Counted from the stretch's first letter, positions 29,077-47,155 are shown. The stretch: DNA of 64,000 nt from Spirochaetia bacterium (GCA_965208575.1 CBDBOV010000004.1:1152001-1216000); one strand, 5' to 3'. A program made the numbers and translations. Notes: generated by a model not told the origin, from the sequence alone.

Positions 29077-30313
29077 TCAAAAAAATCGAGAAATGAAGAT
29101 GGTTGCCGGTACTATAGCCGGTATTTCCCATCTCGCCAAGTTGTTGTCCCTGGCGCACGCGATCGCCCTGCGCGACATGCGTTCTCGCGAGATGCGCGTA
29201 CAGGGTCTGGAAGCCGTCCGGGTGGCGCAGGATGACGTAGCGCCCGTAATTGCCATTGTAGCCGGCCGACGCCACGACGCCGCTCATCGATGCAACTACC
29301 GGCGTGCCGGGCCCGTTTGCGATGTCGACCCCATTGTGAAACTTGCGCAACCCGGTGAATGGATCGTTGCGGTATCCGTACGGCGACGACAGGCGGCCCC
29401 GGGCGGGTGCTATGAACAGCCGTCCGAGCACTCGATTGCGCACGTTCTCGCTCAATCCGGCGCCCGGAATCAGCAAGATCTGCCCCGGAGTGATGATCGA
29501 ACTCGCCACCTCATTGACATCGAGGATGGCCTCCAGGCCGACCTCGTGGCGGGCCGCTATCCGGCTCAGATTGTCACCGCGGCGCACCACGTATCGAATT
29601 CCCGAGTGGCTCGGAATGACCAACTCCAGGCCGTCCTTCAGATCGCGCTCGCGGCGCAGTTCGTTGAAACTGATAATGGTGTCCAGGGTAACGTCGAAGC
29701 GCTCCGCGATTGCGCCGAGCGTGTCGCCCGCCGCGACCTCGTAGCGCCGGAACTGCACGCCGCCGTCGGCGTACTGCGCGGCCGGCACGGCAGCAGTCGA
29801 GGTGCGCTCGCCGGCGGGCGCGCCGAGGCTCAGAAGCGTGTCGATGAGCGCTTCCTGGAGGCGCCCGTCGGGCGGCAGCAACGCGGCCGCCGCGCTCGCG
29901 CGGTCGCGCACCACGGCGCCCGACGGCGCGTAGTACAGCAGCAGCCCCACGGCGGCGGCGGCGAACGCGGTCAGCGCAGCCGGCACCAGCAGCGGACGGA
30001 TGCCGCGCGTCGCCACCCGCGCCACCGCACGCGCCGCGGCGGCGCGCGTCGATTCCCACAGGTCGCCGGCCGCCGCCGCCCAGCGTGCGCCGTCGGCGGC
30101 CGGCGGGAGCACCACCGAGAGGGCTGCTCCTGCGCCCGGCACCGGCGCGGCCATGGCCGTGCCGGTGCTCAGTCCCTCTACCTGAACCGCCCGCTTGTGG
30201 CGGCGTGGATGCTGCTTGTGCAGCGCCAGACGGCGGCCGCGGCCGCCGCGGCGGCGCAGCCTGCGGCGTGCGACACGCTGGCCGCGCAGCGCGTGGTGGG
30301 CGAAGTCCCGCAT
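29039..30313 (-). CDS. 2x LysM + M23 metallopeptidase
   Basis: YEVAAGDTL, YVVRRGDNL, HNGVD, YAHL and STGNHLHF. Confidence 0.92.
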   Translation of the reverse strand: MRDFAHHALRGQRVARRRLRRRGGRGRRLALHKQHPRRHKRAVQVEGLSTGTAMAAPVPGAGAALSVVLPPAADGARWAAAAGDLWESTRAAAARAVARVATRGIRPLLVPAALTAFAAAAVGLLLYYAPSGAVVRDRASAAAALLPPDGRLQEALIDTLLSLGAPAGERTSTAAVPAAQYADGGVQFRRYEVAAGDTLGAIAERFDVTLDTIISFNELRRERDLKDGLELVIPSHSGIRYVVRRGDNLSRIAARHEVGLEAILDVNEVASSIITPGQILLIPGAGLSENVRNRVLGRLFIAPARGRLSSPYGYRNDPFTGLRKFHNGVDIANGPGTPVVASMSGVVASAGYNGNYGRYVILRHPDGFQTLYAHLARTHVAQGDRVRQGQQLGEMGNTGYSTGNHLHFSIFLNGTHVDPQEYLD

Positions 30314-30322
30314 TCATTTTGC

Positions 30323-30350
30323 ATATCGACACTTCGGACGCTCGCCATTA
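30323..30350 (-). promoter_or_regulatory. Putative sigma28 (FliA/SigD-type) promoter for the M23 peptidase pair
   Basis: TAAT-16 nt-GTCGATAT, compared with the consensus TAAA-N14-16-GCCGATAT. Confidence 0.5.
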
Positions 30351-30785
30351 CCGGCGCGGGGCGCGCGTGCCGGCGGCGAGGTTGACGATCAGCTCCACCT
30401 CGGCCGGGCTGGTGGCGAGATGGTCGACTATGGCGGCGTTGGACATTCCCATGCGGCGCAGGCGCAACACCTCCGCACGCCGGTCGGCGGACTCACGTGC
30501 AGGCCGGTCCGCCGGTGGCCGCTCGCTCGCGGCGGGCGCCGCGCCGACCTCGTCGACGCGCGCGAGCAGATCCTGCAGGCGACCGACCCCGTCCTCCAGC
30601 AGCGCCACGTTGCGCTCCGTGGCGGCATTCAGTTCGGTGACCAGGGCGGCAACTTCGGCACGCAGTTCGGACACCACGTCCGGATCGTTCATGCGGCGCG
30701 CCAGCGCCCGTCTCAGCAGCACGTAGAGGATCACCAATCCAGCCGCTTGCAACACCAGCAGAGCGATCACCATCGATCCCGCCAC
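30348..30785 (-). CDS. Single-pass membrane protein downstream of fliA (DUF6115/DUF2802/SwrB-like)
   Basis: N-terminal TM, a coiled coil (ELNAATERNVALLED) and an HTH-like C-terminus ending EVELIVNL. Confidence 0.65.
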   Translation of the reverse strand: MAGSMVIALLVLQAAGLVILYVLLRRALARRMNDPDVVSELRAEVAALVTELNAATERNVALLEDGVGRLQDLLARVDEVGAAPAASERPPADRPARESADRRAEVLRLRRMGMSNAAIVDHLATSPAEVELIVNLAAGTRAPRR

Positions 30786-30797
30786 GGCACAGCGCGT

Positions 30798-31610
30798 TCA
30801 GCTTATTCCGCGCTTCAGGTTGGTCAGTTTGGCGCGCAGCCGGATTATCGCCTTGGTGTGAAGCTGGGACACGCGCGACTCGGTGACCTGCAGCACTTCG
30901 CCGATCTCACGCAACGTCAAGTCCTCGTAGTAGTAGAGCGCCAACACGCGTTGTTCCTTCGCCGGCAACTCCTGCAGAGCCTCCAACATGACGCGCTTGA
31001 TCTCGTCCCGTTCGGCAATCGAGTCAGGGTTCAAACTGGACGGCGACTCGACACTCTCAGCGATCGAGATACGATCGCTGTCTTCGCTGTTGTAGCGCAG
31101 ATCGTTCAACGACATGACCGCGGTACTGCTGATCTTCAGGAGCAGATCCTGGAACTCCTTGAGCGTCAGATTCATCTCACGGGCGATCTCGGCGTCGACC
31201 GCCGAGCGGCCGAGCGTGGCCTCCAATTCGCGTACCGTATCTTCCACTTCACGCGCCTTTTGGCGGACCGATCTCGGTACCCAGTCGTTGCTGCGCAACT
31301 CGTCGAAGATGGCCCCGCGAATACGGGTCACGGCGTACGTCTTGAACTTGACGTGCTTGGACGGGTCGAACTTGTCGATCGCGTCGAACAGCCCGAATAC
31401 CCCATATCCGACCAGGTCGTCGAACTCCACGCTGCCGGGCATGCGAACCGCCACCTTGCCGGCAACATACTTCACCAGGGGCGCGTACTGGCGTACGAAG
31501 TAGTCGCGGATAGCCTGGTCCTTGCCGCGTCGATAGCTGGTCCAAAGCTGTTCTTCGGTCGCCTGGCTCAACGGCTCCGCCAAGCTTCGTTCACGGGTCT
31601 CAGGCGGCAT
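30798..31610 (-). CDS. fliA: RNA polymerase sigma28 factor (FliA/WhiG)
   Basis: YAPLVKYVA, DDLVGYG, FKTYAVTRIRGAIFDELR..DWVPRSVR and LTLREIGEVLQVTESRVSQLH. Confidence 0.96.
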   Translation of the reverse strand: MPPETRERSLAEPLSQATEEQLWTSYRRGKDQAIRDYFVRQYAPLVKYVAGKVAVRMPGSVEFDDLVGYGVFGLFDAIDKFDPSKHVKFKTYAVTRIRGAIFDELRSNDWVPRSVRQKAREVEDTVRELEATLGRSAVDAEIAREMNLTLKEFQDLLLKISSTAVMSLNDLRYNSEDSDRISIAESVESPSSLNPDSIAERDEIKRVMLEALQELPAKEQRVLALYYYEDLTLREIGEVLQVTESRVSQLHTKAIIRLRAKLTNLKRGIS

Positions 31611-31732
31611 GATCAGTCAGCACCGCGCCCACCGGCGACTGCGATGCCGCCCAGGAAACGCCCTTGAGGCCGCGGTCGCCCCGTATTCGGCTCGTCTGAT
31701 GCAGCGAATCGTGTCTGATTCCAAGTACCGTC

Positions 31733-31761
31733 AGGGTATGTGATCTGATGATTCGGGTCAA
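31733..31761 (-). promoter_or_regulatory. Putative internal sigma70 promoter upstream of fliA
   Basis: TTGACC-17 nt-TACCCT in the flhF-fliA gap. Confidence 0.45.
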
Positions 31762-31802
31762 CATCCCAAGCGCCTCCCGGTCGCGTACGGAAGAACCGCG
31801 GC

Positions 31803-33041
31803 TCACGGCTCACCGGCAGCCCCGACGACCACGCCGTTCGACGGCGCGTGCTCGCCGAACTCTTTCTCCAGCCAGGTGCGGCCGAGCCGGAAGCCATCCA
31901 GGTTCAGCAGCAGTTGCAACGTCGATGCGGGCGCGATGTCCTGCGGCACCACCTGGCCATCGCACAGGTAGGAGACCGGCTTGCGGGCGTCGGCGAGGGC
32001 CGCGATCACGTTGCCGACCGAACCGGTCTCGTCGAGCTTGGTCACGATCACGCTCTCGTAACCGAATGGCTCGAACTGCCGCACGATCTGCAGCAGGTCG
32101 GCTCCCTTCGTGGTCGCGCTTACCACGAGTTGGGTGGTGGCGCCGTGGCCCATCGCATCGAGCACGCTCCGCATCTGTGCGATGCGCGCGTAGTCGGTGG
32201 GACTGCGGCCCACGGTGTCGACGAATATGACGTCGGCGTCGCTGCCGAGGGCGATCGCCTTGCGCAACTCATCGGCGGTCTCGGCGGTGGTCACCGGAAT
32301 ACGCATGATGTCGCCGTACGTTTCGATCTGCGCTCGTGCCCCGATGCGGTAGTTGTCGATGGTCACGATGCGTACCGGCGGCGCCGGCACACCGTTGCCG
32401 AATCCGTGCAGCGCCGCCAGCTTGGCGATCGTGGTGGTCTTGCCGACCCCGGTCGGACCGACCAGGGTGCACACGCGCGGGCCGTCGGCCGGGGCGGGAA
32501 GCTGCTGCAGCGGCGGTGCGATCTTCAGCTCCGCGGCAATCTGCCGCACCACGAACCGGTGTACCGCGCCCTGATCCCGCAGGCTGGACACCGGCAGTTC
32601 GGTGCGCACCGCGTCGATCAGGCGGCCGCGCATCGGCGCCGCGAAGTCGTTGGCCGCGAGCAGCGCGCGCAACTCGGCGAGGGACGGGTGATCGTCGCGC
32701 CGCACGGTCACTTCCGATCCGGGCGGAAGCGATTCGTCCAACCGCTCCCGCAACGCCGCAACCTCGCCGAGCAGCCGGGCAAGACTGGGTGCCTGCTGCG
32801 CCCGCGCCGCCTCGCCGGCGACCGCGCGCGGCGCGCCGTCGTCCGCGGGCGGCGTGGTGGCGTCCGGCGGCGTGCCGTCGACGTAACCGGTAATCTCCAC
32901 GGCCGGACGCGCGAACAGCCCCAGCACGCCGCCGACGCGAACCGTGCGGTGGGACTGGATGCAGGCGTCGGGGCCGTACTTCCGCATCATCTCCGCCAGC
33001 GCCGCCTGCGAGTTGGCGCCGCGTACCGTGAAATAGCGCAT
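31803..33041 (-). CDS. flhF: Flagellar SRP-type GTPase FlhF
   Basis: [34 protein letters not shown] and GQVVPQDI. Confidence 0.95.
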   Translation of the reverse strand: MRYFTVRGANSQAALAEMMRKYGPDACIQSHRTVRVGGVLGLFARPAVEITGYVDGTPPDATTPPADDGAPRAVAGEAARAQQAPSLARLLGEVAALRERLDESLPPGSEVTVRRDDHPSLAELRALLAANDFAAPMRGRLIDAVRTELPVSSLRDQGAVHRFVVRQIAAELKIAPPLQQLPAPADGPRVCTLVGPTGVGKTTTIAKLAALHGFGNGVPAPPVRIVTIDNYRIGARAQIETYGDIMRIPVTTAETADELRKAIALGSDADVIFVDTVGRSPTDYARIAQMRSVLDAMGHGATTQLVVSATTKGADLLQIVRQFEPFGYESVIVTKLDETGSVGNVIAALADARKPVSYLCDGQVVPQDIAPASTLQLLLNLDGFRLGRTWLEKEFGEHAPSNGVVVGAAGEP

Positions 33042-33045
33042 CCCC

Positions 33046-35013
33046 TCAGCGCTCCTCTGCCCGGCCGCCCGCGGCGAGTCCCGACACCTCCGCGAGGCGG
33101 CGCACGGAGCGGGCGGCCGCCACCTCGCTGGTCGCCAGGCACACCAGGTCGGGTATGCGGCGCTCGGTACTGCGCTTCACCAGCGGCCGCACTTCCTCGG
33201 AAGCCAACACCGCCGGCCGGCAGTCCTGCCGCGCACTCTGCCCGAGGGTGGCGGCCAACTCCTCGACCCAGCGGCCGAACTCCGCCGCGGCGCCCGGCCG
33301 GAGGTCCTGCCCCGCCTGCGCGGCCAGCAGCTCCCGCTCCAGCTCCGGCGCCAGCGTGACCACGTGCAACACGCCCTGCGCGTCGCTGTGCTGCGCGCTG
33401 ATCTGGCGGCCGAGCGAGCGCCGCACCCGGCGCACCAGGTAGTCCACGTCGCGCTGCCGGCCGGCCTCGTCCGCGAGCGTCTCCAGTATGGTTACCAGGT
33501 CGCGGATCGATACCCGTTCACGCAACAGCCCCTGCAATACCGCGCGGATCTCGCCCACCGACAGCGCCGCGGTGGCCTCTTCCACCACCGTCGGACAGCT
33601 CTCGCGCAATTCGTCGATCATCGCCCGCACCTGGTCGCGGCCGAGCAGTTCCGCCGCGTGACGCATGAGGACGGCGCGGAACTGCCCCACCAGGGTATCC
33701 ACCGTGTCGGAGCAGCCGGCACCGGGACGGCAGCGTCCGCCGCCGGCTTCGACACCGCGAATCTTGAACCGGTACGCGGTGGGCGGAAGCTGCAGGTTGT
33801 CGGTAACGTGCAGCGCCGGCACCTGCAGCCCCCAGTCGCGCGCCGCCCGGTCGCGTACGCCGCGGGCGCCGCGCAGCAGCTCGGCGCCCGCATTCCCGTC
33901 GGTCGCCGCCAGCAGACCGTACCCCAGTTCCAGCGCCAACGCCGGCGGCAGCGCAGGCGCGGCCCCGCCGGCAGGGTTCGGCGCCGCCGTTGCCCCCGCG
34001 TCGGACGTCGGCGGCGCTGCTTCGGTACCAGGATTGCGCCGGCCGACCGCGCGGCCCAGCCCCGCCACCGCGCCGGCCAGCGGCAGCAACAACCAGGGCG
34101 GGAACCCGGGCAGCAGGCCGAGCAGGGCGAGAAAGCCGGCGGTGACGTAGAATGGACGGTCGTAGCGGGCGAGCTGCAGCGCGGCGTCGATCCCGAACGG
34201 CTGGTCCGAGGCGGCGCGCGTAACGATGATGCCGGTGGCGGTGGAGACGAGCAGCGCGGGAAGCTGGGTTACCAGCCCGTCGCCGATGGTCAGTGCGACG
34301 TAGTGATGCGCCGCGGATGCCAGGTCCTCGCCGTGCACGCTGACGCCGATGATGAAGCCGCCGGCGAGATTGACCGCGGTGATGAACAATGCCACCCGCA
34401 CGTTGCCGGCCACGAACTTGGAAGCACCGTCCATGGCACCGTAGAAGTCCGCCTGGCGCTGCAACTCCTGCTGCCGGAGCCGCGCCTGCGCCTCGGTGAG
34501 CCGCCCGGAGTGGTATTCCGCGTCGATCGCCATCTGCCGGCCGGGCAGGGCGTCGAGCGTGAAGCGCGCCGCCACCTCCGCCACCCGGGTCGATCCGCGC
34601 GTAATCACCACCACCTGCACGGCGATGATGATGATGAAGATGATCAGGCCGATCACCACCCCCGCGGTGCCGGAAGATCCGACCACGAAACTGCCGAACG
34701 CGCGCACGATGCGGCCGTCGAAGGCGGCCCCCTGCGACAGGATCAGCCGCGTCGAGGAGACATTGAGCGCCAGCCCGAACACGGTGGCCAACAGCAGCAA
34801 GGTAGGGAAGCTGCTGAACTCGGCGCTGTTGCGCACACTCAGCACGACCAGGATCACCAGCAGGCTGATGCCTATGTTGAGCGCCATGCCGAGGTCGAGC
34901 AGCACGGCCGGCAGCGGAATCAGCAGCATCAGCACCGCGACGCACACGAACACGGCGACCAGCGCGTCGCCGCGCTGCAGCCAGGCGCCGGAGGGATTGC
35001 CGGCCCTGCTCAT
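33046..35013 (-). CDS. flhA: Flagellar export gate protein FlhA (cytoplasmic domain internally shortened)
   Basis: FSSFPTLLL, RVAEVAARFTLDALPGRQMAID, FYGAMDGASKFV, TIGDGLVTQLPAL, LELGYGL and ERVSIRDL. Confidence 0.93.
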   Translation of the reverse strand: MSRAGNPSGAWLQRGDALVAVFVCVAVLMLLIPLPAVLLDLGMALNIGISLLVILVVLSVRNSAEFSSFPTLLLLATVFGLALNVSSTRLILSQGAAFDGRIVRAFGSFVVGSSGTAGVVIGLIIFIIIIAVQVVVITRGSTRVAEVAARFTLDALPGRQMAIDAEYHSGRLTEAQARLRQQELQRQADFYGAMDGASKFVAGNVRVALFITAVNLAGGFIIGVSVHGEDLASAAHHYVALTIGDGLVTQLPALLVSTATGIIVTRAASDQPFGIDAALQLARYDRPFYVTAGFLALLGLLPGFPPWLLLPLAGAVAGLGRAVGRRNPGTEAAPPTSDAGATAAPNPAGGAAPALPPALALELGYGLLAATDGNAGAELLRGARGVRDRAARDWGLQVPALHVTDNLQLPPTAYRFKIRGVEAGGGRCRPGAGCSDTVDTLVGQFRAVLMRHAAELLGRDQVRAMIDELRESCPTVVEEATAALSVGEIRAVLQGLLRERVSIRDLVTILETLADEAGRQRDVDYLVRRVRRSLGRQISAQHSDAQGVLHVVTLAPELERELLAAQAGQDLRPGAAAEFGRWVEELAATLGQSARQDCRPAVLASEEVRPLVKRSTERRIPDLVCLATSEVAAARSVRRLAEVSGLAAGGRAEER

Positions 35014-36140
35014 TGCGGCCACCGCACGCCTCCGAAACGCGCGCCGACGCCGGGCTCGCGGCGGTCGCGGCTCGCCGCGCCGTGCGCCGCCAGCATCGCG
35101 GCCACCGCCGGCTCGTACGACCGCGGGATGGGGTCGCCGAGCGCGACGCGGCGAAACAGGGCGCCGGCCAGCGCCGCGCGTTCGATCACGGCCACGCCGC
35201 TCGACTCGGCCGCCTGCCGCATCCGCGGTGCGCTGTCGGCAGCCGCCTTGGCGACCACCACCGGCGCGGTCATGGTGTCGGGGTCCCACCGCAAGGCCAC
35301 CACGGTACGCGCCGCGTCGGCGCACACCACGTCCGCGGCCGCGACCTGCTCGGCGGCCGTGCGCGCGAGCAGTGCGCGCGTGCGGGCGCGCAACCGATCG
35401 CGCACCATCGGGTCGCCCTCCTGCAGGCGCCGTTCCTCGCGCTCCCGTGCCACCGAACGGTGCGCCCGCCGGCGGGCGCGGAAATTGCGCAACAGGTAGT
35501 CGGCCGCCGCCAGCAGCAACAGGGCACCCGCCGCCTGCACGGCCAGGCGCAGCGCCGCGCCGTACGCCGCCTCGGCCATGGCTGCGCCGGCCGCGATCGC
35601 GCGCAGCGCGGCGCCGATGTTGAGCACCGCGATCACCGCCACCCCGCCCACCTTGAGCAGTTCCCGGCCGAGGCCGATCGCGGTGTCTGCCGACCACAGC
35701 CGGCGGCCGACGCGTCCCCAACTCGGGGTGATGCGGTGCCAGCGCGGCGTCACGCTTCGCAACCTGATCGGCAAACCTTGCTGGACGAGATGTCCGGCCA
35801 CGGCGCCCGCGATCGCTGCCGCCAGCAGCGGCGCCGCCAGCCGGCCCGCATGGCCGAGCGCCGCCGGCAGCAGGCCGGCCAGCGCGGCGGCGTCGCCCGC
35901 GGCCGCCACGCGACCGAAGCACAGGCGCAGCAATTCGCCGCCGGCGGCGGCGATGGCGGGGCCGGTCAGCGCCGCCGCGCCAATCCCGGCCAGCAGGATC
36001 ACCGCCGCGGTCACCTCCGGCGAGCGCACCGGCTCGGCGGAGTCGCGGGACGCACCGGCGCGCGCAGCGGACGCGCGCAGCCGATCGTCGGCGCCGGCCC
36101 GCCCGCCGCCGACGAGAGCGGACCGGAACGCGCCGCTCAC
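35010..36140 (-). CDS. flhB: Divergent FlhB lacking the NPTH autocleavage motif
   Basis: EGDPMVR, ADVV...VVALRWD, APVVVAK and LAGALF..V..GDPIP; located between fliR and flhA. Confidence 0.85.
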   Translation of the reverse strand: MSGAFRSALVGGGRAGADDRLRASAARAGASRDSAEPVRSPEVTAAVILLAGIGAAALTGPAIAAAGGELLRLCFGRVAAAGDAAALAGLLPAALGHAGRLAAPLLAAAIAGAVAGHLVQQGLPIRLRSVTPRWHRITPSWGRVGRRLWSADTAIGLGRELLKVGGVAVIAVLNIGAALRAIAAGAAMAEAAYGAALRLAVQAAGALLLLAAADYLLRNFRARRRAHRSVAREREERRLQEGDPMVRDRLRARTRALLARTAAEQVAAADVVCADAARTVVALRWDPDTMTAPVVVAKAAADSAPRMRQAAESSGVAVIERAALAGALFRRVALGDPIPRSYEPAVAAMLAAHGAASRDRREPGVGARFGGVRWPQ

Positions 36141-36970
36141 GGCACCGCTCCCGCGCCCGCCGGCGGCGTGGCCGTCAGCCCGTCCAGCATCCGGCGCAGC
36201 GTGGCAAAGCCGTCGTCGAGCGCCGCCGCGGCGGCGCTCAGCAGCAATGGCAGCGTGACCAGGAGGATCACCAGGCCGGCGCCGAGCGACAACGGCAGCC
36301 CCAGCATGAGCAGGTTCATGTGCGGCGCGACGCGCGCGAGCAGGGCAAGCGCGAGTGACACCAGCAGCAGTGCCGCGAATATCGGCAGCGCGATCGCCAT
36401 GGCGGTGCCGAACAGGCGCGCAAGGCTGCCCGCCACGGTGTGCAGCAGCAACCCGGCGCCGCGGCCCGTGCCGGCCGCGAAGCTCACCACCAGGTCGGCG
36501 GCGCGCAGGGCGTGAAAGGAACCCGCCACGCCGTCGAGCATCAGCCGGTGCAGTCCGCCCACCGACAGGAACGCCATCACGGCGAGCACGTGGAACAACT
36601 GGCCCAAAAGCGGAGAACGGCCCGCGGTGAACGGATCGAGCAGCTCGACCACGCCGAACCCGACGGGCAGCGAGATGAACGCGCCGGCGGTCTGCAGGGC
36701 GGTGAACCCCAGGAGCACCAGGAAGCCGAGCAGCACACCCACGAGCGCCTCGCCGAGCAGCAGCAACGCGAACTGTACCCCGGACGCCGGTACCGGGTAG
36801 CCGCCGGCGATCACCCCGGGCAGCGCTACCACGGCGATGAACAGCGCCAGCCCCAACCGCCCCGGTTGCGGAATGGCCGCCGACGAGAACAGCGGCGCCA
36901 CCTGCATCATCGCCACCACGCGCGCCAACACCAGCAGCCCGATCCCCAGGTCATCGGCAAGCAGCCGCAT
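36137..36970 (-). CDS. fliR: Flagellar export protein FliR
   Basis: LARV...APLFSS, GEALVG, TAGAFI, ALPI and RVAPHMNLLMLGLP. Confidence 0.9.
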   Translation of the reverse strand: MRLLADDLGIGLLVLARVVAMMQVAPLFSSAAIPQPGRLGLALFIAVVALPGVIAGGYPVPASGVQFALLLLGEALVGVLLGFLVLLGFTALQTAGAFISLPVGFGVVELLDPFTAGRSPLLGQLFHVLAVMAFLSVGGLHRLMLDGVAGSFHALRAADLVVSFAAGTGRGAGLLLHTVAGSLARLFGTAMAIALPIFAALLLVSLALALLARVAPHMNLLMLGLPLSLGAGLVILLVTLPLLLSAAAAALDDGFATLRRMLDGLTATPPAGAGAVP

Positions 36971-37257
36971 CACGGCCTCGCCGCCATGGCCGGGATGCTC
37001 TCGAACAACCGGGTAGTGAAGTCGATCATCGACGCCCCCAGCCACGGGCCCAACAGCAGGGCGACCCCGATGACCGCAAAGATCTTCGGCACGAAGGACA
37101 GCGTCTGCTCCTGGATCGAGGTGGCAGCCTGCACGATCGACACCACGAGCCCCACCAGCACGCTCGCCACCATCAGCGGCGCCGCCAGCACGAGGAGCTG
37201 CAGCACCGCCTCGCGCGCCAGGGTCACGACGGTACCGAGCGTCATCGCCGCCGCCAT
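36970..37257 (-). CDS. fliQ: Flagellar export protein FliQ
   Basis: VGLVVSIVQAATSIQEQTLSFVPKI. Confidence 0.96.
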   Translation of the reverse strand: MAAAMTLGTVVTLAREAVLQLLVLAAPLMVASVLVGLVVSIVQAATSIQEQTLSFVPKIFAVIGVALLLGPWLGASMIDFTTRLFESIPAMAARP

Positions 37258-38102
37258 CAGCGGAAACTCTCGATCAGTTGCATGACCAGCAGATCCCAGC
37301 CATCGACCAGTACGAACAGCACCAGCTTGAACGGCAGCGAAATGAGCACCGGGGGAAGTACGATGATCCCCATCGAGATCAGCGTGGTGGCCACCACCAT
37401 GTCGATGATCACGAACGGAATGAATATGAGCACGCCTATTTTGAATGCCACGGTGAGCTCATGCAGAATGAACGCCGGGATCAGGATGTAAGTGGGCACG
37501 TCGGCGCGCGTGTTCGGCTTGGGCAGATCGCGCATGCTCATGAACAGGCGGATGTTGTCGGCGTCGTTGCCGAGCTGGCGAAACATGAATTCGCGTACCG
37601 GGGCCTGGGCGCGTTGCAACAGCTCCTGCCCGTGCAGCTCGCCGCGCGAGAACGGCTGCAGGGCGTCGCGGTTGATCGCCTCGAAGGTCGGCCACATGAT
37701 GAACGCGGTCAGAAACAGGGCTACGCCCATCAACACCTGGTTGGGCGGCATGTCGGTGAGCGAAAGCGCGCGCTTCACGAACTGCAGCACGATGGCAAGG
37801 CGCAGGAACGAGGTAGTCAGGATCACGATCGACGGCGCCAGCGACAGCACCGCGAGCAGCAGCAGCAACTGCAGCGACAGCGCCAGCTCCTGATTGGTGT
37901 ACGCGTCGCGCAGGCTGAGGTCCAGGAACGGCACGCTGCTGACGGCCGGCGCCGCGGCGGCTGCGATGCCCGCGGCCGCGGCAGCCGCCGCGTCGGGCGC
38001 GGGCGCCGGCGTCTGCGCCGCCACCGGGGCGGCGATGAGCAACGCCGCGCACAAGGCCGCGCCGGCGGCAGCACGGCGGCGCAGGATGCTAGGTAGCCGC
38101 AC
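37257..38102 (-). CDS. fliP: Flagellar export pore protein FliP
   Basis: LAPSI..LTTSFLR, PPNQVL, IPAFILHEL..AFKIG and ISLPFKLVLFVLVDGW; GTG start with a GGAGG RBS. Confidence 0.96.
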   Translation of the reverse strand: MRLPSILRRRAAAGAALCAALLIAAPVAAQTPAPAPDAAAAAAAGIAAAAAPAVSSVPFLDLSLRDAYTNQELALSLQLLLLLAVLSLAPSIVILTTSFLRLAIVLQFVKRALSLTDMPPNQVLMGVALFLTAFIMWPTFEAINRDALQPFSRGELHGQELLQRAQAPVREFMFRQLGNDADNIRLFMSMRDLPKPNTRADVPTYILIPAFILHELTVAFKIGVLIFIPFVIIDMVVATTLISMGIIVLPPVLISLPFKLVLFVLVDGWDLLVMQLIESFR

Positions 38103-39036
38103 GGACCTCTTCCTCCACCGCCGGGGTGCGGCCCAGGCGGCGCGCGCGATCCCGTTGGCGGGGCGCCCGATCACCCAGGCGGCGCGCTCGATCCCGTTGG
38201 AGGGGCGCCCGATCCCGTTGGAGGGGCGCCCGATCCCGTTGGAGGGGCGCCCGATCCCGTTGGAGGGGCGCCCGATCCCGTTGGAGGGGCGCCCGATCCC
38301 GTTGGAGGGGTGCCCGATCCCGCTGGAGGGGCGCCCGATCACCCAGGCGGCGCGCCCGCTCCCGCTGCCGGCGCAGGAACGCGGTGTGGCCGGAGTCCGC
38401 GCTGCGCGCATCGGAGGGCGTGCCGATGCCGGCCTCGGCGAGCAGGTCGGCAAACCGGCTGCGCGCGGAAGCGCCCTGCCCGGCGGGGTGCGCCGCGAGC
38501 CGATCGAGGCGCTCGGGATCGGTGATCTCGGCCACCAGGTTTACCGCCTGGTCGCCGGCTCCCACCAGGTAGTAGCCGCCGGCCGCACGCACCAGGTGCA
38601 GGCTGCGGTTGCCGCCGAGCGAACGCGAACCGAGCACGGCGATCAGCTCGCTGTTGCCGAGCCGGCCCGCGGCGCCGCGCCGGAAGAGCCGGAACAGCAG
38701 GTAGATCGCGCCGAGCACCGCGGCAAGCACCACCACCATGCGCACGAAGTCGCCGGTCGAGACCACGCCGCCGGCCGCGGCGCCGGAGGTGCGGCCGGCC
38801 TCGGGCAGCGGCGTCGCGTCGACCGGCGGCGCGCCGGCAACCGACGCCTGTGGCTGCGGTTGCGGCTGCTGCGCGGACAACGGACACACCGCGACCAGCA
38901 GCGCGCCCGCGATCAGCAGCGCCGGAGCACCGATGGCAGAGCGCCGCGCACGCTTGGTCGAAGCGCGGGCGGCTGTCGCGTTGTACAGGTCTGTTCCCCT
39001 CCCAGGAACGCAGCCTTGCGTCCTTTCCTTCGCCAT
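38089..39036 (-). CDS. fliO: FliO/FliZ-type export chaperone with a repeat-expanded C-terminus
   Basis: TM (FVRMVVVLAAVLGAIYL), SLGGNRSLHLVRA...YLVGAGDQAVNLVAEI, and position immediately before fliP. Confidence 0.85.
   Translation of the reverse strand: MAKERTQGCVPGRGTDLYNATAARASTKRARRSAIGAPALLIAGALLVAVCPLSAQQPQPQPQASVAGAPPVDATPLPEAGRTSGAAAGGVVSTGDFVRMVVVLAAVLGAIYLLFRLFRRGAAGRLGNSELIAVLGSRSLGGNRSLHLVRAAGGYYLVGAGDQAVNLVAEITDPERLDRLAAHPAGQGASARSRFADLLAEAGIGTPSDARSADSGHTAFLRRQRERARRLGDRAPLQRDRAPLQRDRAPLQRDRAPLQRDRAPLQRDRAPLQRDRAPLQRDRARRLGDRAPRQRDRARRLGRTPAVEEEVRAAT
38148..38340 (-). repeat. 21-bp tandem repeat x7 (DRAPLQR) in the fliO 3' end, plus degenerate flanking copies
   Basis: CGATCCCGTTGGAGGGGCGCC occurs seven times on the plus strand at 38189-38335. 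Confidence 0.95.
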
Positions 39037-39044
39037 CGCCGGCG

Positions 39045-39953
39045 CTATCGGTCTCTCCCCCCGGAGTCAAGAATCTCCGTGACCCGGATGCCGTAACTGT
39101 CTTCCAATGCCACGACCCGCCCGCGCGCGACCGGCTCGCGGTTCATCTCGATCGCGACCGACTGGCCGGCGAATCGACTCATGCCGATTACCATGCCCTC
39201 GTCGAGGGCGGGCGCGCCGCCGCTGCGCAGCCCGCCGGCGCCCAGTTCAACGGTCACCATGGCATCGGCGCGAGCGGCGCGCGACGGTCGCGGCGGCGCC
39301 ACTTCGCGGGCCAGCAAGCGGTGGCCGATCGCCGCCAGACTTGCCTCCGCCACCGCCAGGTACAGTTGGCCCTCCTGTCCGCCGGCGGCCGCCGCGAAGG
39401 TGGCGCACACCAGCCGGGTGTCCGGCGCCGGCAGTTCGGTGGTGTCGGCCTGCCGCTCGAGGTACTCGAGGCGCGGTACGACGCCGCACACCGGCGCCCA
39501 CGCGCGCTGCAGGTCGGGCAGCAGCGCCGCGATGCCGCGCCGCAGCACCATGCCCTCGATCTCGCTCAAGCCGCGCTCCGGCACCATGGGTACGCCGCGC
39601 CCGCCCAGCAGCCGGTCGATCAGCAGGAATGCAAGCACCCGGTCGACGGCAAACAGCGCCGCCCCCGGCAGCGGGTCGAGCGCCACGCCCGCCAGCGCCG
39701 CCGGCGCCCACCGGGCTCGCAGTTCACTGCATGACCGGCGCTCCGCCGCGGCAAGCCGAACCCGGCACGGCGTGCGCACGAGCGTGCTGAGCGACTCGGA
39801 GGCGAAGCGCGCGAATCGGCGATGTACCGCGCTCACGATGGCGACCTGCTCGCCGGCCAGCGGCCCCGCGCCGGACGGCAAACCGCCGGGGGGCATACTG
39901 CCGGACGGCATACTGCCGGACGACCAGCGGTCATGCGGCACGCCCTCACCCAT
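39045..39953 (-). CDS. FliM middle domain plus FliN-type SPOA domain (C-ring chimera); start uncertain
   Basis: EQVAIVSAVHRRFAR..SLS, LDPLPG and IDRLLGG..LSEIE are FliM-like; VELG...GRVVALEDSYGIRVTEI is FliN-like. Confidence 0.75.
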   Translation of the reverse strand: MGEGVPHDRWSSGSMPSGSMPPGGLPSGAGPLAGEQVAIVSAVHRRFARFASESLSTLVRTPCRVRLAAAERRSCSELRARWAPAALAGVALDPLPGAALFAVDRVLAFLLIDRLLGGRGVPMVPERGLSEIEGMVLRRGIAALLPDLQRAWAPVCGVVPRLEYLERQADTTELPAPDTRLVCATFAAAAGGQEGQLYLAVAEASLAAIGHRLLAREVAPPRPSRAARADAMVTVELGAGGLRSGGAPALDEGMVIGMSRFAGQSVAIEMNREPVARGRVVALEDSYGIRVTEILDSGGRDR

Positions 39954-40080
39954 CGGCGCCCCCGGCGCCCGGCCGGCAAGGCGCGACGAATGCGCACACC
40001 GGTGGTACGCGAGCGGGGAGCAACGCAGCCAGCCGGGAGGGATCGCCGCGTTCATGCAGCCGGAGTTGCGCCATCGGCTG

Positions 40081-41718
40081 CTAGTCCTCGACCAGCCACC
40101 GGCGCAGCGCGCGCGCCGCGTCTTGCGGTCGCCGGCGGGCCAGGTGCTCGGCGCTGCGGCGCATCTGCTCCTGGTCCGCCAGGCCACCCGGTCTCCCGGT
40201 CCCGAACACCCGCGTCGCGCTGCTCAAGCGCGCCGTGCCGCCGGCGGCGCGCGCCGCCCGGCGGCGGCGCTGCCGCCGGCGCACCACCACGACCAGGGCG
40301 AGCAGCAGCAGCGCGGCGGCCGCCGCGGCGGCCGCCGGCAACATGCTCAGCAGCCATGCCTCCCGGCGCAGCAGCACGTCTTCCTGCGCGAACTGACTGC
40401 TGCGGTCGAACTGCAGATGCTCCACCGTGACCGAGTCGCCACGCTGCCGGTCCCAGCCGATGGCGTCCTGAACCAGCAGCGTCGCCTTGCGCAACTCGTC
40501 GCCGGGAACCGGGGTGTACGTGCGCCGCACGCTGCCGTCCTGGTTCAGGGCGACGCCGCCGTCGGGCCGGAACTCGGTGCGCCACACGCCGTCGAGGGCC
40601 ACGCTCACCGTGATGCGGTTGATCGCCCAGGGGCTCTCCTCGCGCACCGTGTTGCGCCGGTTCACCACCTCGCTGCGGCTCGTCGAGCGGCGCTCGTAGT
40701 GCTCGCCGGCAGCGCCGTCGCCGCTGCTCCTGGTCTCCGTCTCCTCGTCCTCGGCGACCGTGATCGAGGGCACCCGCAGCGCTTCGTCGGCGTCGGTGAG
40801 CGGATCGTCCTCGCGCAAGGCGATCGGGAAATGCTCCTCCGTGGTGGTCGACTGCGAAGACAGGTCGAGGTCGATGTCGAGGCGGACGATCTGCACCCGG
40901 TCGGCGGAGAAGATATTGCCGAGGGCGGCGACGATTTCCCGCGTGTAGCGCTGCTCCAAGCCGTACTTGGTATCCAGTTGGCGCTCCACCAGGGTCATCC
41001 GGCTGCGTCCCGAAACGCCGCCCGGATCGTTCACCTGGACGCCGCGAGGATCGAGGATCACGATGTGCTCGGCGCTCAGGCCGGCCACCGCAAACTGTAC
41101 GAGCCGCTGGATGCCGTGCACCCGATGGTGGTCGTCGAGAATCCCGGAGCCCTGGCGGGGCGTTATCACGATGGAAGCGGTGGTAGGGAGTTGATCCTCC
41201 GCGAACAGTTCGCGTTCCGGCACTACCAGGGTGACGTGGGCGGCGGCGACGTCGTCGAGCGCCTCGAGGTGCTGTTCGAGGCTGCGCGTGAGGGCGCGCT
41301 GAAGGTTGACGCTGCGTTCGAAGTCGGTGACCGAGAATCGCCCGAGGTCGAATATCGAGAACGGGTCGGTTTGCGAGGGTACCAGGTCTTCGCGAATCAG
41401 GATGCCGCGCAACCGGCGCGCCGAGTCCTGGTCGGACACGAAGATGCGGTCACCGGCGCGGATTTCGTACTCCACGCCTTCCTGATCGAGCCGGCCGGCG
41501 ATGCGCAGCAGTTGCCCGGCGTCCTCGACGGGGGCATTGATCAGTGGCACCATCCGCACACCGGCGTTCAATGGCCCGCCCTCGCGTGATGCCCCGATCA
41601 ACCCAGCGGCGACCACCGCGACGGCGAGCGCGCCGCCGAGCGACCAACGCTGCGCCCCGGTCAATCTGCCCCAAAAGCCAAACGCCTGTTGCCGCATACG
41701 CGGCAGTACGTCGAGCAT
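40081..41718 (-). CDS. fliF: Flagellar MS-ring protein FliF
   Basis: Two TM segments, TDFER.VN.QRAL, AHVTLVVPERELF, VQFAVAGL..E.IVILD, RITVSVALDG and RGDSVTV. Confidence 0.93.
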   Translation of the reverse strand: MLDVLPRMRQQAFGFWGRLTGAQRWSLGGALAVAVVAAGLIGASREGGPLNAGVRMVPLINAPVEDAGQLLRIAGRLDQEGVEYEIRAGDRIFVSDQDSARRLRGILIREDLVPSQTDPFSIFDLGRFSVTDFERSVNLQRALTRSLEQHLEALDDVAAAHVTLVVPERELFAEDQLPTTASIVITPRQGSGILDDHHRVHGIQRLVQFAVAGLSAEHIVILDPRGVQVNDPGGVSGRSRMTLVERQLDTKYGLEQRYTREIVAALGNIFSADRVQIVRLDIDLDLSSQSTTTEEHFPIALREDDPLTDADEALRVPSITVAEDEETETRSSGDGAAGEHYERRSTSRSEVVNRRNTVREESPWAINRITVSVALDGVWRTEFRPDGGVALNQDGSVRRTYTPVPGDELRKATLLVQDAIGWDRQRGDSVTVEHLQFDRSSQFAQEDVLLRREAWLLSMLPAAAAAAAALLLLALVVVVRRRQRRRRAARAAGGTARLSSATRVFGTGRPGGLADQEQMRRSAEHLARRRPQDAARALRRWLVED

Positions 41719-41795
41719 GTTCCCCTCCCACGGCACGGATCGACTTGCCGCCGCCGCAGGGTAGACGGCCGCGGACAAGCCCTTCCGGTACCATA

Positions 41796-41824
41796 GTTAT
41801 GCGTGAGCGGCGCGCTATTGTCAA
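41796..41824 (-). promoter_or_regulatory. Putative sigma70 promoter of the reduced fliF operon
   Basis: TTGACA-17 nt-CATAAC; a GGGAGG RBS precedes the fliF ATG. Confidence 0.65.
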
Positions 41825-41835
41825 CCGCGGCCGGC

Positions 41836-41855
41836 ACGAAAAAACGCTTTTTCGT
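41836..41855. terminator. Weak AT-rich inverted repeat just downstream of hslU
   Basis: ACGAAAAA-ACGC-TTTTTCGT; could be a weak terminator or an operator. Confidence 0.3.
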
Positions 41856-41859
41856 AGCG

Positions 41860-43284
41860 CTAAAGGATGAACCGCGTCAGGTCGCGATCTTCTATTATCT
41901 TGACCAACCGTTCGTCCACGTAGCCGGTCGTAATGGTAACGGTCTGGCCCTTCAGATCGGGCGCGTTGAAGGACAGATCCTCGAGCAGATGCTCCATGAT
42001 GGTGTGCAGGCGGCGCGCACCGATGTTCTCGGTGCTGCGGTTCACTTCCGCGGCCAGTTCCGACAACCGGTCGACCGCGTCATCGGTGAATACCAGGGTC
42101 ACGTCCTCGGTGGCGAGCAGCGCCTCGTACTGGGTAATCAACGCGTTGCGCGGCTGTGTGAGAATGCGTTTGAAGTCGTCGCGACCGAGATCGTCGAGCT
42201 CGACACGAATCGGAAAGCGGCCCTGCAGTTCGGGGATCAGGTCGGATGGTTTGCTCATGTGAAACGCGCCGGCGGCAATGAACAGGACGTGCGCGGTGTC
42301 GACCACTCCCCACTTGGTGGTTACCGTACTTCCTTCGACGATCGGCAGTATGTCACGCTGTACCCCTTCACGGGAAACGTCGGCGCCGCCGCGGGTGTCC
42401 TTGGCCGCCACCTTGTCGATTTCGTCGAGGAAGATTATTCCCATCTGCTCGACGCGTTCGATCGCCAGCTCCGACACACGCTCCTTGTCGACCAGCCGGT
42501 CGATCTCCTCGGCCATCAGGATCGCGCGCGCGCGGCGGATCGGCACCTTCTTCTTTTTCTTGCGGCCACCAAACAAATTGCCAAGACTGCCGAGATTGAT
42601 GTCCATCTCCTCGAAGCTCTGACCGGAGAAGATTTCGATTGCCGGTCCGCTGCTGTCGGCGACGCTCACCTCGACCAGCTTGTCCTCCAGCTCGCCCGCC
42701 CGAAGACGCTCGCGAAACCTGTTTACCGTGCCGTTTTCCGGCGCCGCGGGAGACGCGGTGGGCGGCGGCGGCGGCGGCGCAAACCCGGCCGGCGTTGCGG
42801 CCGGCGTTGCGGCCGGTGCTGCGGCCGTCTGCGGCTTCCTGGGCTGGCCCGGCGACAGACCGGGCAGCAGCAACTCGATGAGCTGCTGTTCGACGCGATT
42901 CTCGGCCTCTTCCTGAATGCCTTCCTGCAACTCGGTCTTGACCATCGACACCGCCACCGAGGCGAGATCGCGCACCATCGACTCGACGTCGCGGCCGACA
43001 TACCCGACCTCGGTGTACTTGGTGGCCTCCACCTTGACGAACGGCGCTCGGCACAGCTTCGCCAGGCGGCGCGCAATCTCGGTTTTGCCGACACCCGTGG
43101 GACCGATCAGGATGATGTTCTTCGGCGTAACCTCATCGCGCAACTCGTCCGGCAACTTGCGCCGGCGCAGGCGATTGCGGAGCGCAATCGCAACCGCTTT
43201 CTTGGCTTGTTGCTGGCCCACGATGTAGCGGTCGAGCTCGCTCACGATCTCGGTCGGGCTGAGCTTGTCCAGGTCGATGCTCAT
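41860..43284 (-). CDS. hslU: ATP-dependent protease ATPase subunit HslU
   Basis: [41 protein letters not shown] and [10 protein letters not shown]. Confidence 0.98.
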
Positions 43285-43808
43285 GACAGCTCCTCGACGG
43301 TGATTTCTCGGTTGGTGTACACGCAAATGTCGGCCGCGATCTGCAACGAACGGACCGCGATGTCGCGTGGGCCGTGGTCGGAGCTGTCCAGGAAGGCGCG
43401 CGCGGCGGCCAGGGCGTAGTTACCCCCGGAACCGATGGCGATGGCGCCGTGATCGGGCTCCAGCACATCGCCGTTGCCGGAGATGAGCAGGGTCTTGCCG
43501 GCATCGGCCGCCAGCAGCAGCGCCTCCAGGCGACGCAGCAGGCGGTCCGATCGCCACTCCCGCGCCAGCTCCACCGACGCCCGCGTCAGGTCGCCGCCAA
43601 ATTCCTTCACCTTGCCTTCGAACCGGTCGAACAGCGTGAACGCATCCGCCGTGCCACCCGCGAACCCGACCAGGATAGCACCGTCGGCGATCGCGCGCAC
43701 CTTGCGCGCGCCGCCCTTGACGATGGTCGCGTCCATGGTCACCTGACCGTCGCCGGCCATCGCCACCCGCGTGCCGCGGCGCACGGCGACGATCGTCGTA
43801 CCGTGCAT
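43281..43808 (-). CDS. hslV: ATP-dependent protease subunit HslV
   Basis: [32 protein letters not shown] and ICVYTN. Confidence 0.97.
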
Positions 43809-43855
43809 TGCCGTTCCAAGCATTGAATTGCCGTACATGGAAGTACCTGCTCCCC

Positions 43856-45043: not shown

Positions 45044-45045
45044 CC

Positions 45046-46125: not shown

Positions 46126-46157
46126 GCCTCATATAACGGAATCGGAACCGTCGCGCT

Positions 46158-47114: not shown

Positions 47115-47155
47115 GGACGGCTACCGCGCGCGCCGCCGCGGCTCCGTGATTCGGG

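Follow-up and report, generated by a model that had tools for sequence, protein, structure and literature searches.

A probable selectively maintained remnant of the flagellar basal body in a spirochete lineage that no longer builds flagella

The stretch of DNA considered here, referred to throughout as the window, is a segment of 64,000 nucleotides (nt) from a Spirochaetia bacterium (GCA_965208575.1 CBDBOV010000004.1:1152001-1216000), and the system under study is a cluster of flagellar genes that follows hslU on its minus strand. The cluster is best read, at a probability of roughly 0.62, as a remnant of the basal body of the spirochete periplasmic flagellum that would have been maintained by selection in a lineage no longer building flagella, with its export gate in a simplified role driven by the proton-motive force (PMF). 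The genome as a whole keeps FliF, FliG, a FliM-FliN protein, FliO, FliP, FliQ, FliR, FlhB, FlhA, FlhF, the sigma factor FliA/WhiG and its anti-sigma partner FlgM, as well as a small protein that is anchored in the membrane and has a helix-turn-helix (HTH)-like domain. Gone are the rod, hook, filament, and stator together with FliE, FliH/I/J, FliS, FliL, FlhG, and CheW. The original prediction, made from the window alone, had described an MS (membrane-supramembrane) ring plus export gate only; the set proves wider, consisting of the MS ring, parts of the C ring, the gate, FlhF, FliA, and FlgM. The prediction had also proposed a clean deletion of rod, hook, stator, rotor, and ATPase genes, and whole-genome searches by hidden Markov models (HMMs) and tblastn bear this out for all but the rotor, as a three-domain fliG lies on another contig and FliM-FliN is kept.

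The window has a G+C content of ∼67–70% and its raw lists of open reading frames (ORFs) are crowded with spurious frames; frames were chosen by third-position G+C (GC3) and then scanned against Pfam and NCBIfam. The minus strand reads as one co-directional string of ftsZ, a xer recombinase gene, dprA, xerC, hslV, and hslU, followed by the flagellar cluster in the order fliF, a gene with FliM and FliN_C domains, fliO, fliP, fliQ, fliR, flhB, flhA, flhF, fliA/whiG, and a gene for a protein of 145 amino acids (aa). The ORFs of the cluster contain no internal stops and mostly abut or overlap their neighbors, in agreement with the gene order and intact frames that had been predicted. All Pfam matches of the gate proteins FliO/P/Q/R, FlhB, and FlhA lie over the cut-off, and the injectisome models score under their cut-offs and under the flagellar models (SctJ 37 versus FliF 233, SctR 159 versus FliP 265, SctV 450 versus FlhA 620). 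The hslU stop is separated from the fliF ATG by 142 nt and the fliF stop from the probable fliM start by ∼125–190 nt, and neither gap holds any rod-, hook-, stator-, or ATPase-like sequence, so that the short gaps free of remnants also stand as predicted. Contigs from a sequencing run of another study span the hslU-fliF junction (40973–42249) and the fliF 3′ end (39951–40680), and the same junctions are found in two complete chromosomes of related species, the closest public loci. The proposed promoter TTGACA-17-CATAAC is literally present ahead of fliF; a consensus scanner leaves it unlisted because its −10 element lacks the final T. The TTGACA is invariant in 5/5 aligned genomes of the genus while the flanking spacer is variable, the −10 element CATAA[CA] occurs in four of the five, and GGGAGGGG precedes the probable fliF ATG at 41717.

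The missing genes have not simply moved elsewhere. The genome measures 6.50 Mb in 6 contigs, with a completeness of 95.2% and a contamination of 5.75%; HMM searches covered all six frames, and tblastn searches of the whole genome (E <= 0.01) took their queries from G009, a flagellated genome belonging to the same order, whose entire hslVU-flgB superoperon supplied Pfam-verified proteins. These queries recover the retained proteins at identities of 70% for HslV, 64% for HslU, 39% for FliF, 48% for FliG, 30% for FliM, 38% for the FliN C-terminus, 42% for FliO, 67% for FliP, 55% for FliQ, 40% for FliR, 31% for FlhB, 46% for FlhA, 47% for FlhF, 75% for FliA, and 32% for a DUF6115-like gene. No match was obtained anywhere in the genome with G009 FlgB, FlgC, FliE, FliH, FliJ, FliK, FlgD, FlgE, FlbD, MotA, MotB, FliL, FapA, or CheW, or with two unnamed superoperon proteins of 203 and 106 aa. 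The FliI query reached only ATP-synthase paralogs (29–31%) and the FlhG query only ParA/MinD-like genes (24–31%). The HMM searches of the genome likewise returned no Flg_bb_rod (PF00460), no Flagellin_N, and no FliI/YscN match over the cut-off, the best ATPases being F1- and V1-type paralogs. The two MotA_ExbB-family genes each precede an ExbD-sized ORF (143–145 aa). The sample of the order comprises 81 genomes, of which 24 belong to the family of the window, in two genera: 11 in the genus of the window, its own genome included, and 13 in a sister genus. Across this family, FliI over the cut-off, FliE, and MotB_plug were each found in 0/24 genomes, and an injectisome ATPase of the SctN/FliI/YscN family in none of the 24; injectisome secretin and needle proteins were not searched for. 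FliS was absent from 4/4 reduced genomes and present in the one flagellated control.

Two members of the kept set lie outside the window. A complete fliG with N, M, and C domains (348 aa; G000:C5:1154636-1155682, minus strand, G000 being the genome of the window) stands alone, with the gene of an RNA-binding RRM protein on one side and a DUF1223 gene on the other. An origin as an old second paralog of the FliG1 type was rejected, since the protein is 47–49% identical to operon-type FliG of flagellated relatives as compared with 24–39% to other paralogs; no paralog fliG locus of flagellated relatives has the DUF1223/RRM synteny. A 95-aa FlgM ortholog (G000:C2:30750-31037, plus strand) is 40–43% identical, end to end, to FlgM of G009 and of G038 from the sister genus; its Pfam score is weak, at 17.9 bits (cut-off 25) versus 35.5–35.8 bits in G038 and G009. 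As to the surroundings of fliG, a DDE transposase gene lies ∼2 kb away (C5:1151036-1152772) and a V/A-type ATPase operon with V_ATPase_I and A/B-like subunits lies within a few kb (C5:1158407-1167312). Together with two further F1-like alpha/beta pairs (C4:7665-11248; C5:1246061-1249632), this operon apparently makes three rotary ATPase loci in all.

Flagellin is present in 61/61 genomes of the seven sister families and full-length FlhA in 59 of them. Among 19 other genomes sampled from the family of the window, flagellin occurs in one, the fragmented bin G070. Within the genus, FliG_C is found in 11/11 genomes, FlhA, FliF, FliA over the cut-off, and FlgM each in 10/11, and rod motifs in 1/11. 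G070 accounts for the missing FlhA, FliF, and FliA and is the sole rod carrier of the family (1/24); the genome without FlgM, G076, is 76% complete. Whether relatives share the gene set had been proposed as a check, and at six other loci of the genus the order is indeed conserved with all frames open, except that in G046 fliF lies ∼120 kb away and the 145-aa gene is missing. The neighbors of fliG are conserved in all six of the other genus genomes. In the sister genus, three genomes that form a clade carry hslU, fliF, fliOPQR, flhB (truncated before its C domain), flhA, and fliA at the same place and have neither fliM nor flhF. Their FliG (193–216 aa) consists of N and M domains only and is encoded beside DUF1223; this unlinked gene tracks the gate, being present in 3/3 gate-bearing and 0/2 gate-less genomes examined. 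FliA over the cut-off and FlgM are each found in 23/24 family genomes, and both in all 13 of the sister genus. The sister genus also has a small ORF (131–177 aa) resembling FliG_N/MgtE_N, followed by an ORF of 437–502 aa, in 5/5 genomes examined, with or without the gate (L042-L046), which is probably unrelated to the flagellar remnant. The 21 runs listed as carrying positions 31803–41778 of the window include none of RNA and are mostly sponge, marine, or coral-reef metagenomes; three runs from two studies contain at least half of the sequence words of the stretch, one of them possibly the source sample.

The simplest reading of this distribution is that the two genera lost the rod, hook, stator, and ATPase genes independently while keeping the same core. 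In G070, a contig of 9 kb (C79; L034) carries xer, dprA, xerC, hslV, hslU, flgB, and flgC before it ends. In a maximum-likelihood tree built from HslU, HslV, and XerC (15 taxa with three flagellated outgroups, 957 columns), this contig and the reduced genus are sisters (100/99), and the sister genus lies outside (100/100). Constraining the 11 reduced genomes to a single clade lowers the log-likelihood by 22.9 units (approximately unbiased test, p-AU 0.0009), for a group that was named after the tree was seen. A caution on independence comes from the fliG-DUF1223 linkage, which is common to both genera and involves a copy derived from operon-type FliG; at least that rearrangement is therefore older than the genus split, and the copy perhaps arose as a duplicate in a still-flagellated ancestor. 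G070 further contains three flagellin hits and FlgM (L035, L066, L084) at a similar G+C (0.65–0.68), and it provides a useful outgroup for dating the loss.

Selection on the retained genes was examined by dN/dS (omega), calculated by the simple Nei-Gojobori method on codon alignments from tblastn for the three closest genomes (dS 0.35–0.6); hslU pairs with G033 and, in the sister genus, two flhB pairs with G038 were dropped as alignment artefacts. The ratios lie far below 1, and the random pseudogenization with ratios near 1 that the original prediction had weighed against itself is not what the relatives display. The lowest values belong to whiG (0.05–0.09), fliP (0.10–0.15), fliG (0.12–0.19), and fliQ (0.14–0.24), followed by fliF and fliR (both 0.21–0.26), flhA (0.23–0.27), flhF (0.22–0.28), the 145-aa gene (0.26–0.32), fliM-N (0.29–0.39), flhB (0.39–0.54), and fliO (0.42–0.52). 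Controls range from 0.05–0.12 (ftsZ, hslU, RRM) to 0.15–0.29 (xer, dprA, DUF1223, exonuclease); FliP and FliA evolve at housekeeping-like rates. A second subclade of the genus gives similar ratios, including 0.13 for the part of flhA that remains in two genomes without its C domain, G015 and G052. In three sister-genus genomes the values are 0.09–0.15 for fliQ, 0.16–0.30 for fliP, 0.23–0.34 for fliR, 0.28–0.35 for fliF, 0.31–0.41 for flhA, 0.33–0.47 for fliG(N+M), and 0.74 for flhB, the range without flhB being 0.09–0.48. A complementary, ORF-based measure is the fraction of residues invariant in three flagellated families that is retained in all genus genomes. This fraction is 0.82 for the control HslU, 0.79 for FliA, 0.68 for FliP, 0.61 for the N-terminal part of FlhA, 0.58 for FlhF, 0.55 for FliQ, and 0.42 for each of FliR, FliF, and FliO, and it declines to 0.35 for FliG N+M, 0.29 for FliG C and FlhB C, 0.27 for FlhA C, and 0.11 for FliM. 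Constraint peaks in the membrane channel (FliP, FliQ, and the N-terminal part of FlhA), and the surfaces for cytoplasmic docking, switching, and torque (FlhA C, FlhB C, FliM, and FliG C) are relaxed or remodelled.

Several changes within individual proteins would fit the missing partners. The NPTH motif of FlhB, present in 3/3 flagellated relatives, occurs in 0/7 genus genomes, in which DAAR, DPAR, DGRR, HGER, or GGAR stands instead, and the FlhB C domain is deleted in 3/3 sister-genus copies. The CheY-binding N-terminus of FliM (LSQDEIDQLL in G009) is missing from the window protein. FliG C has a charged segment (KEDMD in flagellated relatives) that we take to be the stator-contact helix; in 7/7 genus genomes, Ala or Ser replaces its second acidic residue. 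Both genera conserve the C-terminal motif of FliF, presumably the FliG-binding peptide, in keeping with their retention of at least FliG N+M. The FliM-FliN protein is a chimera as predicted: its middle part resembles FliM, and its C-terminal domain finds matches in the stand-alone FliN of four other genus genomes (41–47%) but in no FliM C-terminus. FlhF retains its G1 (GPTGVGKT) and G4 (TKLD) motifs, and the HMM match of FlhA in the window protein is split (2–405 and 450–654). The 145-aa protein, whose ortholog lies in the superoperon of a flagellated relative, has an N-terminal transmembrane (TM) helix, a long helix, and a C-terminal three-helix HTH-like bundle, as judged from alignment, hydrophobicity, and an AlphaFold model (predicted local distance difference test score, pLDDT, 77). 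Its gene follows fliA, a position that we presume for swrB of Bacillus subtilis as well. SwrB has a similar topology, with an N-terminal TM helix and the rest cytoplasmic in type (bioRxiv 10.1101/2021.04.30.442225); the likeness is one of position and topology.

In the favored explanation, FliF, FliG, and FliM-N would still assemble as an MS ring and a simplified C ring around the FliPQR-FlhB-FlhA gate in the inner membrane. With no FliH/I/J complex, the gate would be limited to the PMF as its sole source of power; with neither FliE nor a rod above it, it would open into the periplasm, where anything that passes would end; and with an FlhB that has no NPTH and hence no autocleavage, there would be no switch from early to late substrates. 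FlgM would be the sole canonical substrate still encoded. The gate most likely has a simplified role, driven by the PMF, in translocation or as a conduit, which appears preferable to chaperone-guided export because the channel is the most constrained part, the docking surfaces are the loosest, and two species have dispensed with FlhA C. The persistence of FlgM and FliA without FliF indicates that the sigma/anti-sigma pair is autonomous, and the idea of FlgM export is not needed, though it may hold for the gate-bearing genomes. A more ambitious version, in which two sister lineages of sponge-associated spirochetes were independently stripped to the same core of MS ring and gate, devoid of ATPase, rod, and switch and working, on the power of protons, as a translocase or conduit that leads to the periplasm, is offered tentatively and would be the less probable outcome.

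A number of observations weigh against a maintained function. The dN/dS values are a simple estimate. FliM, FliG, FlhB, and FliF have changed far faster than they do between flagellated families, which may reflect relaxation rather than a new function: identities between those families are 88–94% for FliG, 82–87% for FliM, 74–76% for FlhA, 71–73% for FliP, and 72–73% for HslU, as compared with 48%, 30%, 46%, 67%, and 64%, respectively, between the window and G009. Reduction is continuing over long time scales, as follows from the loss of FlhA C in two genus members and from the 10/13 sister-genus genomes that have no FliF. In those two members, G015 and G052, FlhA has 480–510 aa and is missing profile positions 450–654, most of the C-terminal domain. 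Erosion is also seen in fliN, which four more distant genus members keep as a separate gene after fliM and which the subclade of the window has lost, and in the sister genus, where the C domains of both FlhB and FliG are gone. FlhA is absent from 6/9 sister-genus genomes examined, and at two gate-less loci hslU is followed directly by fliA within ∼350–530 bp; the core is therefore dispensable in close relatives. FlgM, its N-terminus included, is equally conserved in the 10 genomes without FliF, which gives no support for gate-dependent export, and in model organisms a non-cleaving FlhB blocks export of the FlgM type. Finally, the analysis turned up no candidate cargo, and lineage-specific DNA in or beside the cluster gave no relevant hint of one. 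A 4.7 kb insert in G052 proved to carry a restriction-modification gene of the MmeI type, a 2.4 kb segment of the sister genus encodes a penicillin-binding protein, and the DNA upstream of fliM in G046 holds metabolic genes. The insert of G052 (L025:13385-17344), an MmeI-like type IIL gene with a 121-aa ORF, sits between hslU and fliF and leaves the operon unbroken.

Such erosion is what would be expected of slow decay, in which the cluster is a functionless relic spared only because deletions must miss the essential hslU and the still-used fliA, last but one in the operon. This account would accommodate the graded series within one family, from a full superoperon to fliA alone, the missing FliF and truncated FlhA, the sister-genus FlhB with its deleted C domain and an omega of 0.74, and the strong acceleration of FliM, FliG, and FlhB. 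It is nonetheless an unlikely explanation, given that the retained ORFs are all open in seven genus genomes at a dS of ∼0.6–1.3 between subclades and that fliP, fliQ, fliR, fliF, fliG, flhA, and flhF have an omega of 0.10–0.28, as low as dprA, xerC, and DUF1223. The unlinked fliG, moreover, is kept in 6/6 genomes, and in the sister genus its presence follows that of the gate. Two lineages independently held on to the same core, and clean deletions that leave hslU and fliA in place do occur, so that constraint from the flanks does not explain retention. About as improbable is a regulatory checkpoint, in which the gate would be kept to export the anti-sigma factor FlgM and thereby switch on a FliA/WhiG regulon of non-flagellar genes. 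In its favor, the 95-aa FlgM ortholog and FliA are each retained in 23/24 genomes, fliA belongs to the same operon, and few proteins of the locus are as conserved as FliA (93–94% identity, omega 0.05–0.09). Late-substrate export in Salmonella needs the FlhB NPTH, which is missing here. FlgM is the classical regulator exported by the type III secretion system of the flagellum (fT3SS) (PMC13063649; bioRxiv 10.1101/2021.04.30.442225), a point that counts for the checkpoint, yet FliA and FlgM occur throughout the sister genus (13/13 genomes), where FliF is missing from 10, and the N-terminal segment of FlgM is as conserved without the gate as with it. The sigma-28 regulon, too, could not be defined. 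The consensus TAAA-N15-GCCGATAA gave 5 real matches in the genome versus 10 in a reversed-sequence control and was dropped; upstream of seven flaB genes of flagellated relatives, it gave one weak match and no canonical sigma-28 box. The flaB leaders of these relatives (L060-L066) contain hairpins with CAAGGA/GGA motifs beside an AGGAGG ribosome site, in what looks like translational control of the CsrA/FliW type.

The gate might instead serve as a membrane platform rather than an exporter, either as a conduit or nucleation site (the base of a CORE-type nanotube, or a 'hat-like' fT3SS-related structure) or as a polar landmark positioned by FlhF. This possibility is rated lower again. The link between nanotubes and CORE is disputed. 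The retained gate genes correspond to the CORE set of FliO/P/Q/R, FlhB, and FlhA (PMC6456723), and inner-membrane structures related to the fT3SS and of unknown function are on record (PMC9380563). Conservation of the membrane parts contrasts with the loss or degradation of FlhA C, FlhB C, and the ATPase, the N-terminal part of FlhA has an omega of 0.13 in G015 and G052 despite the missing C domain, and the occurrence of the DNA mainly in sponge and marine metagenomes suggests life in a dense community. Against a platform, FlhF is missing from the sister-genus version, and nanotubes of B. subtilis are independent of FliF (PMC6456723), whereas FliF and FliG here always travel with the gate. That the organism is flagellated after all, with genes that escaped assembly, lie on an unbinned replicon, or have diverged beyond detection, is close to refuted. 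The completeness of 95.2%, the contamination of 5.75%, and the 6 contigs leave some room for it, and flagellin and rod genes are indeed present in one bin of the genus, G070. However, four single-contig genomes of the genus (G007, G015, G033, and G052) are likewise devoid of flagellin and rod motifs, queries from the same order hit the retained proteins at 30–75% yet find nothing for 14 others, the deletions are visible as short gaps at ancestral positions, and G070 is a separate basal lineage. Weighed against these four alternatives, the selectively maintained basal-body remnant with a simplified, PMF-driven gate is the reading that we prefer.

The features of the cluster and of its immediate upstream flank are collected in Table 1.

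Table 1. Flagellar cluster and flanking features, in positions of the window
Feature	Position	Strand	Remarks
hslU	41860..43326	-	Pfam AAA_2 etc.; 64% to G009 HslU; upstream anchor of the ancestral superoperon
Terminator-like hairpin and T-run	41843..41861	-	Immediately 3′ of the hslU stop
Sigma-70-like promoter TTGACA-17-CATAAC	41795..41823	-	Upstream of fliF; a conserved leader and GGGAGGGG-ATG come next
fliF, MS-ring protein	40081..41778 (ORF)	-	Likely start ATG 41717, 545 aa; TIGR00206 232.9 bits (cut-off 129.75); Pfam YscJ_FliF and YscJ_FliF_C
FliM-FliN chimera	39045..40187 (ORF)	-	Real protein ~280 aa, start near 39956-39890; Pfam FliM 85 bits and FliMN_C 33 bits
fliO	38089..39036	-	Pfam FliO 47 bits; 42% to G009 FliO
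fliP	37257..38453	-	Homology from ~residue 170 of the ORF, near 37946; TIGR01103 265 bits (cut-off 217); 67% to G009
fliQ	36970..37257	-	Pfam Bac_export_3 95 bits
fliR	36137..37045	-	Pfam Bac_export_1 176 bits
flhB	35010..36140	-	C-terminal fold region kept, NPTH replaced by DAAR; TIGR00328 153 bits, under cut-off 349
flhA	33046..35100	-	Start near 35050; Pfam FHIPEP 635 bits; TIGR01398 620 bits, under cut-off 772; divergent C-terminal domain
flhF, signal recognition particle (SRP)-type GTPase	31803..33041	-	Pfam SRP54; TIGR03499 168.5 bits, slightly under cut-off 174; 47% to G009 FlhF
fliA/whiG, sigma-28	30798..31610	-	TIGR02479 288 bits (cut-off 189.6); NF004935 (WhiG) 399 bits (cut-off 343); 75% to G009 FliA
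145-aa protein	30348..30785	-	N-terminal TM helix; weak DUF6115 match, 18 bits, below cut-off; 32% to G009 185-aa DUF6115-like gene

Directly downstream of the cluster, in both genera, lie two tandem LysM-M23 peptidase genes (28006–30313 of the window, minus strand), at least one of which encodes an N-terminal hydrophobic segment typical of Sec export. Upstream, the ftsZ-xer-dprA-xerC-hslV-hslU synteny (43281–48328, minus strand) leads into the operon that ends in a sigma-28 gene. We take this order to recall the fla/che neighborhood of Bacillus and the position of whiG in actinomycetes, and the resemblance suggests that this linkage may be very old.

Precedent exists for partial flagellar type III secretion systems in non-flagellated bacteria. 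Abby and Rocha recorded partial loci on 61 replicons, with a flagellar origin for all except two, and the same paper cites roughly a dozen species without flagella that carry flagella-like loci (PMC3459982). No description of the present case was found in the literature, where supplementary gene tables could mention it; the available text of a paper on sponge spirochetes (PMC11656744) leaves motility and flagella unmentioned, its supplement being outside this check. What is new is how far and how cleanly the system has been reduced, with no ATPase, axial part, or switch; that the case lies in Spirochaetota is new as well, as are its graded series of natural losses and its apparently independent replicate. 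The working of a gate without its ATPase and other parts has so far been addressed mainly through engineered Salmonella mutants (PMC4230889). The genomes described here amount to natural experiments on a gate without ATPase, rod, hook-length switch, or chaperones, one that would have been held by selection for a long time. Their pattern of constraint separates the parts that are constrained on their own (FliP, FliQ, the membrane part of FlhA, and FliF with FliG N+M) from those that build or turn a flagellum. They also extend the non-motile spirochetes beyond Sphaerochaeta and highlight a FliA-FlgM pair that outlives the complete loss of the flagellum. Should a cargo or conduit function be found, it would bear directly on the exaptation of secretion systems from flagella. 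If the reading of a working core in two lineages is true, these spirochetes would provide a living analogue of the 'deletion intermediate' proposed between flagellum and injectisome, as well as a natural minimal fT3SS with a ready deletion series (with or without the C ring, FlhF, the FlhA C domain, and the FlhB C domain).

Known systems with partial flagellar or related gene sets differ from this one in instructive ways. Buchnera aphidicola, which is host-associated and has no flagellin, carries basal-body and export genes that are thought to act as a secretion device, and it keeps the rod, hook, P/L rings, and FliH/I/J; the spirochete retains fewer genes than this and none for an axial structure. 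Streptomyces WhiG is an orphan sigma-28 reused in a non-flagellated bacterium and thus resembles the present FliA-type sigma factor, which differs in lying at the end of a partial flagellar operon and in keeping its FlgM partner. The reduced type III secretion system of Myxococcales, a non-flagellar one (NF-T3SS) termed 'Myxo', keeps its ATPase. It has no outer-membrane channel or needle, its sequence and gene order have long been conserved, and it has been argued to be functional, possibly without secretion past the envelope (PMC3459982). The 'Myxo' system belongs to the injectisome (Sct) lineage, whereas the spirochete set scores as flagellar and arose separately inside Spirochaetota.

Closer in content are the Myxococci, Chloracidobacterium thermophilum, and Succinatimonas hippei, which keep the CORE genes without most flagellar or injectisome genes (Bhattacharya et al., PMC6456723). 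These genomes share with the spirochete the retention of the six gate genes without most flagellar structural genes; the spirochete additionally keeps FliF, FliG, FliM-N, FlhF, FliA, and FlgM, and its set is clearly flagellar by descent and position. Within Spirochaetota, the Sphaerochaeta are known non-motile spirochetes in which zero motility or chemotaxis genes were reportedly found (PMC3372971). Both are Spirochaetota without periplasmic flagella, and they differ in that the core, FliA, and FlgM survive here. The nearest counterpart is Lysobacter enzymogenes OH11, a non-flagellated bacterium that keeps flhA, flhB, fliP/Q/R, and fliF and in which the proteins are expressed and co-opted for non-flagellar protein secretion and control of twitching (PMC7688988). 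OH11 differs in having fliI, which is needed for secretion, as well as flgC, flgG, flgE, flgD, flgH, flgI, and fliN (PMC7688988). The spirochete system, known here from its genes alone, has by comparison no ATPase, rod, hook, or rings beyond the MS ring, and its FlhB would be of a non-cleaving type.

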